A stretch of DNA of 46,439 bases from a candidate division WOR-3 bacterium (lineage in GTDB: Bacteria > Hydrothermota > Hydrothermia > B15-G9 > WFZT01): assembly GCA_027053075.1 (NCBI GenBank), contig JALUEE010000044.1:1-46439 (forward strand), in the 5' to 3' direction. The notes under the pieces were generated by a model. It had not been told where the DNA came from. It worked only from the letters and a program-made list of their open reading frames with translations, and did no database searches. The first letter of the stretch is position 1. Each line of letters begins with the position of its first letter. Shown in pieces: positions 13,878 through 36,377 of the stretch. A program made the position numbers and the translations under genes.

Positions 13878-15137
13878 TCAAGTGTAGCGAATGATTTCGT
13901 GCCTCTCTTTTCCAATGGAAACCATTGAGATGTTTACACCGAGGTAGTCCTGAATGAAGTCCAGGTAAATTCTTGCGTTTTCTGGAAAATCTTCCTTCCT
14001 CTTTGCACCCCTGACCGTTTCCCATCCCCTGAAACTCTGGTAAATCGGCCTGACACCCTCAAGATCATGGGGGAGGTCACGGGTTCTTGACCCATCGGGT
14101 AACTCGTATTCCGTGGCAACTTTGATCTCGTCGAGCCCGTCGAGGACATCGAGCTTGGTGATAACGAGGTCTGTAACCCCATTGAGCATGACAGAATATT
14201 TGAGAAGCACCAGGTCGAGCCATCCGCATCTACGGGGTCTCCCGGTTGTGGCGCCGTATTCTCCACCTTTTTGACGAAGATATTCACCAAGATTGTCGTC
14301 AAGTTCGGTAGGGAACGGCCCTTTGCCCACCCTTGTTGTGTAGGCCTTGGAAATCCCGATGATGGAGTCGATTTTCTTTGGTGATATCCCGAGGCCAATG
14401 GTAGCTCCACCTGAAATTGTATGCGAGGATGTAACGTACGGATATGTTCCAAAGGTGATGTCAAGAAACGTGCCCTGCGCTCCCTCAAGAAGAACACTTT
14501 TACCTTCGCTAATACTTTTGTTCAAAAACAGGGCCGTGTCATCAACAAAATCTTTAATTTTCTCTCTCCACGTGGAGAGGAGCGAGATAATTTCCTCTTT
14601 TGAATAGTGTTTTTCGCCACCAAAGATTTTAAGGATGTGGTTGTTGTAAGTAAGGGATTTCTCAATTGCCCCAACGAGTCTTTTTTCATCAAATAAATCA
14701 TAGACTCTGATGCCGATTCTCCAGTATTTATCGCGGTATGTGGGGCCTATGCCTCTTTTGGTGGTGCCTATGCCACCTTTTTTAGTCTCTTCCAGTGCAT
14801 CTTCGTCTTTGTGATAGGGCATGGTAATCTGGGCCCGGCCATCTATCAAAAGTCTTCCTTTGATAGGCCCGGTTTTTCTCTCCACCAGTTCGATTTCTTT
14901 TAAAAGCGTCTCAATGTCGAGTACCACACCGGCACCGATTATACCCACTTTTTGAGGTCTCAGGATGCCTGAGGGTATGAGGTGAAAGATAAATTCTTCG
15001 TCACCTACGATTACAGTATGTCCAGCGTTTGTGCCTCCCTGAAACCTGGCAATGACATCGTAGTTTTCAGCGAGGAAATCCACGATTTTCCCCTTGCCTT
15101 CATCACCCCATTGCAGACCAACAACAGCAGTAACCAT
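13878..15137 (-). CDS. purA: Adenylosuccinate synthetase
   Basis: QWGDEGKGK, NAGHT, IGTTKRGIGP, EGAQG, TTGRPRRCGW, TKLDVLD. Confidence 0.98.
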   Translation of the reverse strand: MVTAVVGLQWGDEGKGKIVDFLAENYDVIARFQGGTNAGHTVIVGDEEFIFHLIPSGILRPQKVGIIGAGVVLDIETLLKEIELVERKTGPIKGRLLIDGRAQITMPYHKDEDALEETKKGGIGTTKRGIGPTYRDKYWRIGIRVYDLFDEKRLVGAIEKSLTYNNHILKIFGGEKHYSKEEIISLLSTWREKIKDFVDDTALFLNKSISEGKSVLLEGAQGTFLDITFGTYPYVTSSHTISGGATIGLGISPKKIDSIIGISKAYTTRVGKGPFPTELDDNLGEYLRQKGGEYGATTGRPRRCGWLDLVLLKYSVMLNGVTDLVITKLDVLDGLDEIKVATEYELPDGSRTRDLPHDLEGVRPIYQSFRGWETVRGAKRKEDFPENARIYLDFIQDYLGVNISMVSIGKERHEIIRYT

Positions 15138-15172: not shown

Positions 15173-15201
15173 ATTTTAATGTAGCACTCCTATTCTCTCA
15201 A
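15173..15201 (-). promoter_or_regulatory. sigma70 promoter of the purA operon
   Basis: TTGAGA (15201-15196), 17 nt, TAAAAT (15178-15173); GGAGG SD downstream. Confidence 0.6.
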
Positions 15202-15205
15202 CCAA

Positions 15206-15330
15206 GAGTGAGTTAGAAAAATTTCAAGACCTTTAATTTTTAATTAAAAATTTGCCCCCCACCTTATTCCTCCCCCCACGCACAAAGTGCGTGGGGGGAG
15301 GATAGGAGGGGGGAATTTTCGAACGAGATC
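15206..15330. mobile_element. MITE-like unit 1 of a tandem array; central long hairpin
   Basis: GAGTGAGTTAGAAAAAT ... AATTTTCGAACGAGATC; perfect 16-bp stem 15268-15302 with AAA loop; flanked by ACCAA on both sides. Confidence 0.65.
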
Positions 15331-15335
15331 ACCAA

Positions 15336-15692
15336 GAGTGAGTTCAAAATTATCCTTCTTCCTTTTATACACACTAAATGTGTGGTGAAATATGCTGACA
15401 ACTACGGGACGAAATCCCTTCCCCCGCACGAATTTGTTTGCGGGGGAGGAAAGGAGAGGGGCCACATCATTCTTTACTTGAAATCAATCTTCCCCTTTGG
15501 AGTAAAGGTCCCGATAAAGGTTTGCATCTTGATTTTTCAAATTTTCGAACGGAAAGCCCCCTCCTGTCGCCCTCCCCCGCCTGCTGCGCAGGCGGGGGAG
15601 GGCATCGGGTTGTTCATCTTATACAAGTAAGGCGCTAACACGAGCTATTTCGCAAACACAAATCCTGAAGATAGGAATTTTCGGACCCCCTC
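15336..15692. mobile_element. MITE-like unit 2 of a tandem array carrying an inverted hairpin doublet
   Basis: GAGTGAGTTCAAAAT ... AATTTTCGGACCCCCTC; hairpin modules 15411-15467 and 15549-15603; homologous to 31241-31444. Confidence 0.65.
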
Positions 15693-15695
15693 ACC

Positions 15696-15724
15696 TTGAA
15701 TAAAAACTTTGGGCTGAATATAAT
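15696..15724 (+). promoter_or_regulatory. sigma70 promoter of GT4-NYN-pepA (leaderless)
   Basis: TTGAAT, 17 nt, TATAAT; GTG start 6 nt downstream, no SD. Confidence 0.65.
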
Positions 15725-15730
15725 TTAGCC

Positions 15731-16882
15731 GTGCAGAAATCGTTGAAAATCCTTATGGTTTCAGATGTTTACTACCCCTTTCCCGGTGGCATCACCGAGC
15801 ATGTCCACCACCTGTCTTACTATCTCATGGGGAAGGGACACGATGTTGTTATACTCACAGGGAACCACAAAAATGGCAAAAAAATCGGGCTCAATAGTGT
15901 TAAAGTTATCCGTGTGGGCCGTGGTATTCTAATTCCCATAAATCGCTCCTTCTACTCCCTTCCGGTGAGTTTCCGTCTCCAGAGTCGTGTGAGAGAAGTG
16001 CTTATGAGTCAGGAATGGGACATCGTGCATGTGCATGGCACCTTTTCTCCATCACTCCCACTTTTTACTCTGCTGCAATCTCCGTACACAAATTTCATGA
16101 CCTTTCATCCCACACATGGCTATTCCATTGGATTTGAGATTTTCAAGCCGATACTTCAGAGAGCCTACGAAAATATTCACGGTAAGATTGCCGTTTCAAA
16201 GAGTGCAGAGCGCTCCATCAGCCGACATTTCCCCGGTGATTATCGGATAATTCCCAACGGAGTAGATATTCACAGGTTCGGCCCTCATGTCATGCCAGAA
16301 GACGGTTTAAGGGAAGGCAACGAGAAAATAATTCTCTTTGTGGGAAGAATAGAGCCGCGAAAAGGTTTATCCACGCTTCTTAAAGCATTTGAGAAACTCC
16401 TCAAGCAGGGAGAAGACGTGAGGCTCCTCATTGTAGGTGATACGCCGTTGAGGAAGGTTTTTGAACTCAAGGCACAGAAATTTGGCAGCAGGGTAAAATT
16501 CCTTGGAAAGGTTACGGCACAGGAGATTCCGCGGATTTACAGGGCAGCAGATGTATTTGTGGCACCGGCAACCGGTAAGGAGAGCTTTGGAATAGTTTTG
16601 ATCGAGGCCCTCGCGTCCGGCAAACCTGTTGTGGCATCGGATATTGATGGATATCGAGAGATCATTTCACATGGGGTGGATGGCTTTTTAGTTGAACCCG
16701 GTAATGCCGATTCTCTCGCTCATCATATTGAGAAAATTTTGAAGAATCCAGAGCTGGCAGCAAAGATGGGGGAAATGGGGAGAAGGAAGGTGATGGAACG
16801 GTATTCATGGGAAATTGTATCTTCCATGGTGGAATATTATTACTTCGAGGTTCTTGAAAATGCCAAAAAAGTTTTACGTTGA
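15731..16882 (+). CDS. GT4 family glycosyltransferase (PimA-like)
   Basis: P.PGGI..HV, IIPNGVD, FVGRIEPRKG, ESFGIVLIEA.ASG.PVVASDI.G. Confidence 0.92.
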   Translation: MQKSLKILMVSDVYYPFPGGITEHVHHLSYYLMGKGHDVVILTGNHKNGKKIGLNSVKVIRVGRGILIPINRSFYSLPVSFRLQSRVREVLMSQEWDIVHVHGTFSPSLPLFTLLQSPYTNFMTFHPTHGYSIGFEIFKPILQRAYENIHGKIAVSKSAERSISRHFPGDYRIIPNGVDIHRFGPHVMPEDGLREGNEKIILFVGRIEPRKGLSTLLKAFEKLLKQGEDVRLLIVGDTPLRKVFELKAQKFGSRVKFLGKVTAQEIPRIYRAADVFVAPATGKESFGIVLIEALASGKPVVASDIDGYREIISHGVDGFLVEPGNADSLAHHIEKILKNPELAAKMGEMGRRKVMERYSWEIVSSMVEYYYFEVLENAKKVLR

Positions 16883-31212: not shown

Positions 31213-31500
31213 GAGCATGTTCGAAAATGTTCAAACACAGAAAACTCCTCTCCCCGCATAAATACTTACGGGGAGAGGATAGAGGAGAGAGGTCACATAT
31301 ATTAAACTTGAATAAATTTAAGAATAGAACTTACCCATCAACTTAGCGGCAATTTGTCTTTATCTTGAATTTCTAATTTTCAAGCGGAATGCCCCCTCCC
31401 AACACCCTCCCCCACTTGCAAAGCAAGTGGGGGAGGGGAACTTGAACCCAGATGTTTTACTAATGTGGATTATAGAAAATGATTTTTCAAACAAGCCTTC
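31213..31500. mobile_element. MITE-like unit 1 of the 31-kb array
   Basis: GAGCATGTTCGAAAAT ... ATTTTTCAAACAAGCCTTC; hairpin modules 31241-31298 and 31384-31444. Confidence 0.7.
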
Positions 31501-33884: not shown

Positions 33885-34162
33885 AAGAGTACGATATGGT
33901 TTACTGATGTTTTAAGTATCATTTTAGGTGTAGAAATATTAATTGTTGCTGGACGTTATAGCCTCTGGATTCCCATATTGAGACATATAATTCTCATTTT
34001 GGGACTTTCGGGGACCTCAAAAATTAGTCGATGTAATCTTAAAAATGCAGTTTACCCCCATTAGGATTTCTCTTCTCTATATTTATTCCGAGTGGAAGGT
34101 TAATTGCCAGGATTCTGGGTAAATCGTTAAAAGAGGGAATTTTCGAACAGCATCATCTGCTT

Positions 34163-34191: not shown

Positions 34192-34217
34192 AATGTTTGT
34201 TAAAGGAGGTAAGAAAA

Positions 34218-36377
34218 ATGATGAAGTTGATGATAGTGATGTTGCTGGCTTTGGGCCAGGGTGGTAATTTTGGGAAGCATGGAGTAATGAGCAGGTTAGG
34301 TCTGCCAGAAATAGGAGGGCCAAGGGTTGAATCCGGATTTGATTCTCTTAATGTGAGATTTGTTGGTGCATGGCCCTTTGGCCCTTCTTATGCTGTTGCA
34401 ACAAACGGTGATACAGTTTTTCTTGGATCAGGAGGTGGAATATATATCCTTGACGTAACCGATCCCGCTAACCCTCAAAAAATAAGTGAGATAAAAACAC
34501 GCGGAATAGTAAGTGATATCGCTTATTTCAATGGCAAATTATATATTGCAGACGGTAAAGGAGGACTTGAGATATGGGATGTAAGTAATCTCACGTCTCC
34601 TCAAAAATTAAGTTCGTATAATACTCCCAGTTATACGGGAGGAGTGTATGTGGCAGGAAACTATGCTTATGTGACTGATAGAGATTCGGGAATGAGAGTG
34701 ATAGATGTAAGTAATCCTTCTAACCCTCATGAAGTGGGATATTTCGATACTCCTGGTTTGGCAATTGGTGTTTATGTATCAGGGAATTATGCTTATGTAG
34801 CAGATTGGGATTCAGGCCTGAGAGTCATTGATGTAAGTAATCCTTCTAATCCTTTTGAAGTAGGTTACGATACCCTTGGCTCTGCTTTGGATGTTTATGT
34901 GTTGGGGAATTATGCTTATGTAGCAGATTGGGATTCAGGCCTGAGAGTCATTGATGTAAGTAATCCTTCTAATCCTTTTGAAGTAGGTTACGATACCCTT
35001 GGTTTGGCAATTGGTGTTTATGTATCAGGGAATTATGCTTATGTAGCAGATTGGAATTCAGGTCTGAGAATAATAAATGTGAGTAATCCTAACAATCCTT
35101 TTGAAGTTGGTTACTACAACACACTGGCTTCTGCCTATGGAGTGGCTGTGGTTGAAAATTACGCTTATGTAGCTGACAATTGGGGAGGCTTAAGGATAAT
35201 AAATGTAAGTGATCCCTCTAATCCTTATGAATTGGGTTGCTATGAGGTTCCTGGAGACATAGAGGATGTATATGTATCAGGGAATTATGCTTATGTAGCA
35301 GATTGGAATTCAGGTCTGAGAATAATAGATGTGAGTAATCCTAACAATCCTTTTGAAGTTGGTTATTACGATACTCCTGGTCTTGCAAAAGGAGTGTATG
35401 TGGCTGGAAATTATGCTTATGTAGCTGATGATTGGGATGGTCTTTGGGTAATAGATGTAAGTAATCCATCCACCCCCCATGGAGTGGGTTATTATGATAC
35501 CCCGGGTTGGGCAAGGGATGTATATGTTTCGGGGAATTATGCTTATGTGGCTGATTGGGGAGATGGCCTTAGAGTAATAGATGTGAGTAATCCATCCAAT
35601 CCCCATGAAGTAGGTTATTATGATACACCAGGTTATGCTAGAGATGTATATGTGGTAGGGAATTACGCCTATGTGGCTGATGGTGATTCTGGATTGAGAG
35701 TGATTGATGTTAGCATTCCCACTAATCCCCGAGAAGTGGGTTTCGTTGATATTCCTGGTTATGCATATAGTGTCTATGCCGCAGAAAATTATGCCTATGT
35801 GGCAGCAGGTATTAATGGAGTGCGAATAATAAATGCGTATAATCCATCCAATCCCTATGAAGTAGGTTACTATAATGCAGGCTTTGCGAGAGAAGTATAT
35901 GTTGTAGAGAATTATGCGTACGTGGTGGGGGGGACTTACTTAAGAGTAACAGATGTAAGCAATCCATCCAATGCACATGAAGTAGGTTACCATGACACAC
36001 CCGGCTCTGCCAACGGGGTTTACGTGATTGAGAATTATGCCTATGTGGCAAATGGCAATGCTGGTCTGCAAATTTATCAGTTTTATGGTGTTGGAGTGGA
36101 AGAGGATGGATCAGAGCAGCTTGTTAATCCTTTGAGAGTTAAAGTGAATTCAGTGAAAAGGTTGGATATCTCATTTGAGGTTAAGCAAGGGACAAGGGCT
36201 GAGCTTAAACTTTATGACGTTGCAGGGAGAGAAGTCTGGAGAGGGAAGTTTAATTCAGGAAGACACCATGTATCCATGCCATTACCCACCGGGGTGTATA
36301 TCCTGAGGTCAAATGTTATAAACAGGACAAAGGTTTCAATTTATACGAAAAGATTGATAATTTTGGATAACAACTAA
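34218..36377 (+). CDS. Secreted LVIVD-repeat (beta-propeller) protein with T9SS-type C-terminal domain
   Basis: Signal peptide; about 13 repeats of 41-42 aa (V.GNYAYVAD...GLRVIDVSNPSNP.EVG); C-terminal LYDVAGR...LPTGVYIL...KRLII. Confidence 0.9.
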   Translation: MMKLMIVMLLALGQGGNFGKHGVMSRLGLPEIGGPRVESGFDSLNVRFVGAWPFGPSYAVATNGDTVFLGSGGGIYILDVTDPANPQKISEIKTRGIVSDIAYFNGKLYIADGKGGLEIWDVSNLTSPQKLSSYNTPSYTGGVYVAGNYAYVTDRDSGMRVIDVSNPSNPHEVGYFDTPGLAIGVYVSGNYAYVADWDSGLRVIDVSNPSNPFEVGYDTLGSALDVYVLGNYAYVADWDSGLRVIDVSNPSNPFEVGYDTLGLAIGVYVSGNYAYVADWNSGLRIINVSNPNNPFEVGYYNTLASAYGVAVVENYAYVADNWGGLRIINVSDPSNPYELGCYEVPGDIEDVYVSGNYAYVADWNSGLRIIDVSNPNNPFEVGYYDTPGLAKGVYVAGNYAYVADDWDGLWVIDVSNPSTPHGVGYYDTPGWARDVYVSGNYAYVADWGDGLRVIDVSNPSNPHEVGYYDTPGYARDVYVVGNYAYVADGDSGLRVIDVSIPTNPREVGFVDIPGYAYSVYAAENYAYVAAGINGVRIINAYNPSNPYEVGYYNAGFAREVYVVENYAYVVGGTYLRVTDVSNPSNAHEVGYHDTPGSANGVYVIENYAYVANGNAGLQIYQFYGVGVEEDGSEQLVNPLRVKVNSVKRLDISFEVKQGTRAELKLYDVAGREVWRGKFNSGRHHVSMPLPTGVYILRSNVINRTKVSIYTKRLIILDNN

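Follow-up and report, generated by a model that had tools for sequence, protein, structure and literature searches.

The divergent genes purA and GT4 of a candidate division WOR-3 bacterium are separated by a gap in which the same 14 bases occur twice, raising the question of what occupies this gap and how it came to lie between two promoters. The window, i.e., the whole stretch of 46,439 nucleotides analyzed here, comes from a genome of 114 contigs that is 95% complete (G000), and we compared it with a genome of the same genus that is approximately 95% identical (G004) and with four other species of the genus (G001, G002, G003, and G005). An earlier sequence-only reading had described a tandem array of units with unrelated interiors, wedged between back-to-back promoters and built by successive insertions at one site, each copying the flank plus the existing end. 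We consider it quite probable that the region consists of two MITEs of one family that lie side by side between the promoters of purA and GT4, likely as a result of successive insertions by an IS5-type transposase that cuts beside sigma-70 -35 boxes (Table 1).

Table 1. Features of the purA–GT4 region, in positions of the window.
Feature	Positions	Strand	Description
purA, adenylosuccinate synthase	13878..15137	-	TIGR00184 and NF002223 over cut-off
tilS, hpt, ftsH	after purA	-	Same strand as purA
Predicted purA promoter	15173..15201	-	-35 TTGAGA (15201-15196), 17-nt spacer, -10 TAAAAT (15178-15173)
Putative 9-bp target duplication of unit 1, left copy	15201..15209	+	From the sequence and the family rule
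14-bp direct repeat, copy 1	15201..15214	+	
Unit 1, MITE of 125 bp	15206..15330	none	By terminal-repeat register
Hairpin in unit 1	15268..15302	none	Perfect 16-bp arms
14-bp direct repeat, copy 2	15331..15344	+	
Putative 9-bp target duplication of unit 1, right copy	15331-15339		Within copy 2 of the 14-mer
5-bp spacer between the terminal repeats of units 1 and 2	15331-15335		
Unit 2, MITE of 357 bp	15336..15692	none	By terminal-repeat register
Two hairpins of unit 2	15417..15603	none	About 15417-15449 and 15569-15603
Predicted GT4 promoter	15696..15724	+	-35 TTGAAT (15696-15701), 17-nt spacer, -10 TATAAT (15719-15724)
Family 4 glycosyltransferase (GT4) gene	15731..16882	+	Many GT4 models, all below their specific cut-offs

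A promoter scan of the gap between purA and the GT4 open reading frame returned just two promoter-like sites, TTGAGA-17-TAAAAT on the minus strand and TTGAAT-17-TATAAT on the plus strand, a count that is weak by itself because the shuffle mean was 0.9. In the four other species, where purA and GT4 are not neighbors, both sites are kept over the -35 box and the sequence downstream of it, and conservation stops at the -35 box. This conservation of the -35 and -10 boxes indicates that the two sites flanking the array are probably real promoters, in agreement with the proposed position between back-to-back promoters. No terminator-like site was found in the gap, Tandem Repeats Finder reported nothing at the locus, and the 26 Rfam matches with E values up to 1 were mostly miRNA models on the hairpins, every one scoring far under its gathering score.

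The 14-mer is exact at 15201 and 15331, as had been noticed, and occurs nowhere else in the source genome; none of 1000 first-order Markov resamples of the 623-bp gap contained an exact repeat of at least 14 bases. Unit 1 has dozens of copies across the genome (80–94% identity) and belongs to a subfamily of approximately 123 bp, being 91% identical to the subfamily consensus and 93% to its nearest copy, while none of the 20 other aligned subfamily members has a left end like its own. Unit 2, whose copies elsewhere in the genome are approximately 70% identical, is a full-length member, end to end, of a two-hairpin subfamily of about 360–370 bp (copies on contigs C18, C54, C71, C78, and C106); its left arm matches the subfamily weakly (best of 16 comparisons, z 3.0) and gave no BLAST match beyond the orthologous locus. 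It has decayed terminal repeats and no intact target duplication, and is presumably the older MITE of the pair. The 15-bp repeat of the family is present on both ends of both units (1 + 1 and 2 + 1 mismatches, respectively, at 12 fixed positions), and most of the similarity between the unit ends can be attributed to this shared terminal repeat. In addition, the units share a C-rich/G-rich hairpin module of approximately 50 bp (local score 35 versus a shuffle maximum of 24–28). They do not align along their full length, whereas the products of a simple tandem duplication would. The description of the interiors as unrelated hence holds for the units at full length and not for the hairpin module and the terminal repeats, and in place of a tandem array of one unit we find two different members of one dispersed family. 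The single open reading frame in the units, of 82 aa, had no NCBIfam match.

The terminal inverted repeat common to all copies of this family is 15 bp long (GAGNNNGTTCGAAAA). Exact ends were found 82 times in the source genome and once in a reversed-genome control, and ends at one mismatch 119 and 29 times, respectively, giving 85 end pairs, some of them overlapping or spurious. Among 37 well-paired elements, the flanking duplication was 9 bp in 19, 10 bp in 10, absent in seven, and 5 bp in one, namely unit 1; no duplications of 9–10 bp are expected in shuffled pairs. We also compared 50 fetched loci of G004, covering part of that genome, with the source genome, where 16 of 40 G004 element rows were empty, 14 filled, and 10 unplaced. 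At the eight empty sites that aligned flush, the overlap was 9 bases (four sites) or 10 bases (four sites). Taken together, the terminal repeats, the duplications, and the filled/empty polymorphism lead us to read the units and their dispersed relatives as MITEs.

Several further observations concern the diversity of the family. Within the window, more copies lie at 68 to about 290, at 31213 to about 31500, and from 31511 onward, with a probable tandem at 31.2–31.5 kb, and outward of the family end at 34154, TTGAAT stands at position 9 and is accompanied by a -10 box. Nearby, positions 34197–36377 (plus strand) encode a secreted protein of 726 aa with a 126-bp (42-aa) repeat array, which is choice-of-anchor B-like and has a weak T9SS-type C-terminal domain. 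A size class of approximately 350 bp consists of the 123-bp MITE and an internal segment of about 229 bp (G000:C16:4133-4484, C29:12345-12694, and C50:11549-11898), and at five orthologous sites G004 and G000 differ in element size between identical ends. An open reading frame of 462 aa, presumably an IS110-type transposase judging from its motifs, sits inside the hairpin of a MITE of the unit 1 type (G000:C14:7052-8919; also C23:1-1222, C50, and C96), so that the hairpins themselves are landing sites. G002 carries a sister subfamily (L144-L153) with a variant end and longer duplications of 10–12 bp, and a unit-1-type MITE of 92% identity is located at the beginning of a contig whose genome belongs to another family (L155, G009:C180:2-126), reflecting either transfer or bin contamination.

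The most regular property of the family is the position of its ends relative to promoters. Outside 201 ends that carry no more than one mismatch, of which about 30 are expected to be chance matches, we found TTGA starting at position 9 in 34 and at position 10 in 21 (55 in total), compared to about 1.5 at each other position. Element ends thus lie 8–9 nt upstream of sigma-70 -35 boxes. Full promoter-like sites began at position 9 or 10 at 40 of 199 ends, and at no other position more than twice. At polymorphic sites TTGA was present at positions 9–11 in 14 of 16 cases, and 12 of these 14 keep TTGA in the empty allele, on the side tested, indicating that the -35 box precedes the insertion. On the promoter side, the outermost base of the duplications is the base with which the -35 box begins. 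In 14 of the 37 paired elements, neither side has TTGA at position 9 or 10. The adjacent TTGA pattern recurs in six of 12 genomes of the order, with zero control matches; in G002, all 10 elements examined (five of them chosen with knowledge of this) had TTGA at positions 9–12, with duplications mostly of 10–12 bp. Moreover, relatives of the transposase described below, from other vent bacteria, have TTGA at positions 9–10 in 13 of 27 unique flanks, and these 13 include both orientations and several supported tree branches. We suggest that RNA polymerase bound at the promoter likely guides the transposase, and docking of this kind would allow the element to spread while leaving genes and core promoters intact.

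A candidate for the responsible enzyme is encoded by an autonomous element of 1061 bp in the related genome (G004:C168:4933-5993), which has perfect family ends and a 9-bp duplication beside TTGACA, and whose site is empty in G000. Its product is a DDE protein of 309 aa (P0001) that matches PF01609 with 43.1 bits (cut-off 23); its best NCBIfam model, IS5 NF033579, is also the best model for all 12 members examined and scores 104 bits for P0001, below the cut-off of 140. Residues D112, D188, Y239, R242, E246, and K253 are invariant in 12 aligned homologs, and P0001 carries Y-x2-R-x3-E-x6-K, which we take to be the IS5-family motif. The nearest named relative is ISAae1 of Aquifex aeolicus (38–40% identity). 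No C/D-x2-H follows the second Asp, only 58 residues lie between the second D and the E, and neither PF00872 nor PF06782 matched P0001, the latter profile being uninformative as it matched nothing, controls included. In a fold comparison (model pLDDT 86), the best hit by E-value was the IS256/Mutator-type ISCth4 (TM 0.45), and the TM score for Tn5 was higher (0.52). We regard P0001 as likely IS5-like and related to ISAae1, and file it without a subgroup. Based on the shared ends and the same duplication length, a P0001-type enzyme would have moved units 1 and 2.

Further transposase copies in G004 are cut by contig ends. Copies in the source genome (C33 and C75) are degraded, and no intact cognate transposase was found in the 95% of that genome that is represented. 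An alignment search found none in G001, G002, G003, and G005, which are 82–96% complete (G002 85%); in a set of genome contigs, the single-protein query had no match and the alignment query recovered four loci. The other PF01609 genes of the source genome had no clean copy of the family ends. A Mutator/ISLre2 driver was rejected, the one PF00872 (IS256-type) gene of this genome being without family ends. Mobile elements are nested at G000:C46:1-2100, where an IS256-type gene with one internal stop is inserted near the start of another transposase, with a PF01609 fragment adjoining. Two distant transposases, 31% identical and with similar ends (L082 in G010 and L083 in G009), may form a non-targeting outgroup; the copies examined had no clear 9-bp duplication and no adjacent TTGA.

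How a second element comes to stand beside a first is illustrated by the eight tandem junctions of the source genome. Seven have spacers of 9–11 bp, the purA–GT4 junction alone having one of 5 bp, and in four of the other seven the spacer copies the flank beside the -35 box. Two stackings could be seen by comparing G004 with G000 (L046 and L064), where the new element lies between the -35 box and the older element, the nine intervening bases are duplicated, and the new end is normal. As the promoter fixes the landing spot, a second element comes to lie between the -35 box and the first and duplicates the intervening bases. These junctions lend support to the original proposal that insertions followed one another at a single site and copied the flank.

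Promoters are present on both sides only at the purA–GT4 locus, and their outward positions there, 5 and 4, are unique among 199 ends. By terminal-repeat register the target duplication of unit 1 is 5 bp, and it is 9 bp if a 4-bp loss is assumed. Because the positions and the 5-bp spacer break the family rule, the duplication and 14-mer steps need this unobserved loss. Under the rule, the duplication starts on the first base of the purA-side -35 box, where we find it, and the predicted 9-mer (15201-15209) indeed recurs at 15331-15339. Moreover, as none of the 20 other subfamily members starts like unit 1, its first bases would have been copied from the resident end. In the history that we propose, unit 2 inserted first, and unit 1 then entered at the spot that the purA -35 box sets, producing a 9-bp duplication; with the old end just 4 bp from the box, this duplication would have taken in the first 4 bp of the unit 2 terminal repeat. 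A 4-bp loss or local homogenization at the left end of unit 1 may then have stretched the match to 14 bp. Our preferred reading of the 14-mer is hence a duplication of 9 bp that was joined to the shared element end when 4 bp were lost.

The array also varies in length. The -35 boxes are 494 bp apart in G000 and 210 bp apart in G004, whose allele is without unit 1, has one copy of the 14-mer with one substitution, and misses approximately 147–153 bp between the repeated C-runs of the unit 2 hairpins. A 130-bp skip was present in runs X2 and X3 and was not among the X1 contig joints listed. An allele of 33 bp, counted from a contig joint with 30 letters per side, both single-copy promoter DNA, was observed in runs X8 and X11, and X7 contains it as a loose end; the observations come from two studies. 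In a background resembling G004, this allele retains approximately 21 bp of a left end of the unit 1 type, together with the final 5 bp of unit 2. A two-unit ancestor offers a simple derivation for it, and the G004 allele does not. This derivation, and the fact that the two-hairpin form is the full family structure, indicate that the short alleles are probably deletions and not pre-insertion states; they likely arose later, between short repeats around the hairpins, and we lean toward loss of unit 1 as the origin of the G004 allele. No zero-unit allele was seen in the contigs of seven distinct runs and no circular-form joint among the contig joints listed, contigs being prone to drop rare variants and forms. 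The search for shorter alleles that the sequence-only reading called for therefore yielded two, one of them without unit 1, both of which probably postdate the array. By its sequence, the locus presents itself as an eroded, polymorphic stack of two MITEs.

Whether the polymerase takes part in targeting at all can be questioned, since a plain preference for TTGA just outside the duplication, followed by selection against harmful insertions, might produce a similar picture. Among the adjacent words, TTGAC is the most frequent (39 of 55), and the removal of insertions within genes would by itself enrich promoters among the survivors. We nevertheless think this explanation unlikely, as a -10 box follows 39 of the 55 adjacent TTGA sites compared to 598 of 4708 other non-coding TTGA sites (5.6-fold, p about 1e-22), and nine of 97 ends without TTG still have a -10 box at the matching distance (positions 31–34), observations that favor, without proving, promoter recognition over reading of a four-base word. 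Moreover, the longer duplications of G002 still have their edge at the -35 box. The order of events at the purA–GT4 locus is more debatable. MITEs may have inserted upstream of purA and of GT4 separately and the promoters have been joined by recombination, in which case an empty site with adjacent boxes never existed, and we place this scenario only a little short of even. It agrees with purA and GT4 being unlinked in the four other species, with the missing intact duplication of unit 2, with the bases beside each -35 box, which resemble those of the unlinked relatives, and with the absence of an empty allele from the seven runs. However, it requires two insertions, a recombination, and trimming of 4–5 bp on both sides, whereas one insertion and one short deletion account for both odd spacings; unit 2 follows one subfamily end to end, and in G002 two insertions (L147 and L150) lie between back-to-back promoters with -35 boxes 7–9 bp apart. 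In this alternative history, unit 2 stems from a single insertion at a site whose -35 boxes lay 2–3 bp apart, and the extra box created by the duplication was lost afterwards; here, as in the sequence-only reading, the empty site would have had its -35 boxes a few bases apart.

Copying of the existing end had been proposed as part of each insertion, i.e., as a dedicated way of building arrays in which flank and element end, 14 bp in all, are copied together. The exact and unique 14-mer and the aberrant start of unit 1 speak for it, and part of the old end does appear to have been copied at this locus; as a rule, we find it very unlikely in view of the seven other junctions with plain spacers of 9–11 bp and the two fresh stackings with a clean 9-bp duplication and a normal new end. 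Even less probable, in our view, is that the region is a REP/BIME-like or triplex-motif cluster, or an insulator maintained by the host between divergent promoters. GC-rich hairpins in intergenic DNA would suit such a role, but the terminal repeats, target duplications, filled/empty polymorphism, and matching DDE transposase refute a non-mobile origin of the units, the E. coli triplex consensus is unmatched at up to four substitutions, no Rfam family reaches its gathering score, and several runs contain alleles without most of the array. REP/BIME elements have no terminal-repeat/target-duplication architecture and have an HUH (RAYT) partner, so that this identity was rejected. That a high-copy repeat was glued into the gap during assembly is hardly credible, even with a source genome in 114 contigs and no listed X1 piece spanning the left junction of unit 1. 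A 600-bp contig of run X1, which may be the source sample, covers the region from the unit 1/unit 2 junction to GT4 with zero differences, and a contig of X7 joins the purA flank to a unit-1-type left end.

With two stacked MITEs as the preferred reading, the purA–GT4 locus mainly illustrates a rule, namely stacking and erosion between essential promoters, and the main interest lies in the sharp -35 targeting by an IS5-like clade, which docking on the polymerase may explain. Given its sharp and different offset, an IS5-like enzyme of 309 aa would represent a second, convergent solution to promoter-guided insertion and a small test bed for the polymerase-docking idea; the P0001-type element might serve as a gene-sparing integration tool, and insertion sites of the family would mark real promoters in uncultured lineages. 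As a wider proposal, possible but on balance doubtful, an ISAae1-related IS5-like clade in vent bacteria of several phyla could have independently evolved docking on promoter-bound RNA polymerase and cutting where the -35 box begins, at a far shorter distance than the Mutator-type targeters. The promoter would then be a reusable landing pad that records insertion order, and the purA–GT4 stack a length-polymorphic spacer (33, 210, or 494 bp) tuning interference between the purA-tilS-hpt-ftsH and GT4 promoters.

Among known systems, prokaryotic MITEs are described as short, non-coding elements with terminal repeats and target duplications, hairpin interiors, and intergenic clustering or nesting (PMC10969869). 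In the available text of that review they are treated as promoter-carrying or gene-upstream elements, and a fixed offset to a host -35 box is not described. BoxC/TMECO triplex repeats consist of a C-rich/G-rich hairpin followed by a further G-rich tract and have been linked to local deletions (PMC4666352). The units resemble them in hairpin build and in the nearby deletions, and differ in that the consensus is unmatched on either strand of the gap with up to four substitutions; moreover, that study detected no association with transposases, whereas the hairpins here are cargo inside transposon ends. ISAae1 of Aquifex aeolicus (WP_010880899.1, annotated as IS5-like) is closer, with a transposase of similar size, similar 15-bp ends, and a 9-bp duplication. 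One copy examined has the -35-like TTTACA at outward position 9, followed by a -10-like hexamer, and no paper on ISAae1 was found in the literature searched. As far as their available text goes, neither a broad survey of IS elements (PMC9208149) nor one devoted to Thermus (PMC6352166) describes offset insertion by IS5-type elements, and a search of largely open-access literature, main texts only, found no paper on promoter-offset insertion by such elements. In the papers found, to the extent of their accessible text, promoter-guided insertion in bacteria is described for Mutator-like transposases only.

These Mutator-like systems, the TnGBS ICEs, the ISLre2 family, and the ISKra4 group (p-MULT 3/4), insert at a fixed distance, 15–17 bases, upstream of the -35 region of sigma-A/70 promoters, and contact with RNA polymerase was proposed, not demonstrated, in the portion of the study available (PMC3942029). 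The present family shares with them the fixed-offset insertion at -35 boxes, duplications of comparable length (8–9 bp for p-MULT and 9–10 bp here), and insertion in both orientations, which in p-MULT 3/4 occurs when the two ends are near-perfect repeats. In contrast, the distance from element end to box is 8–9 bases here and not 15–17, and the p-MULT 3/4 transposases are of the Mutator type with C/D-x2-H, a long helical insert, and a terminal C, whereas the present enzyme is of the PF01609 type with Y-x2-R-x3-E-x6-K and no C/D-x2-H, and the element ends start with G. Judged against what is accessible of that description, the present system works like p-MULT 3/4 and is not a member of it, having another type of transposase and a closer offset.
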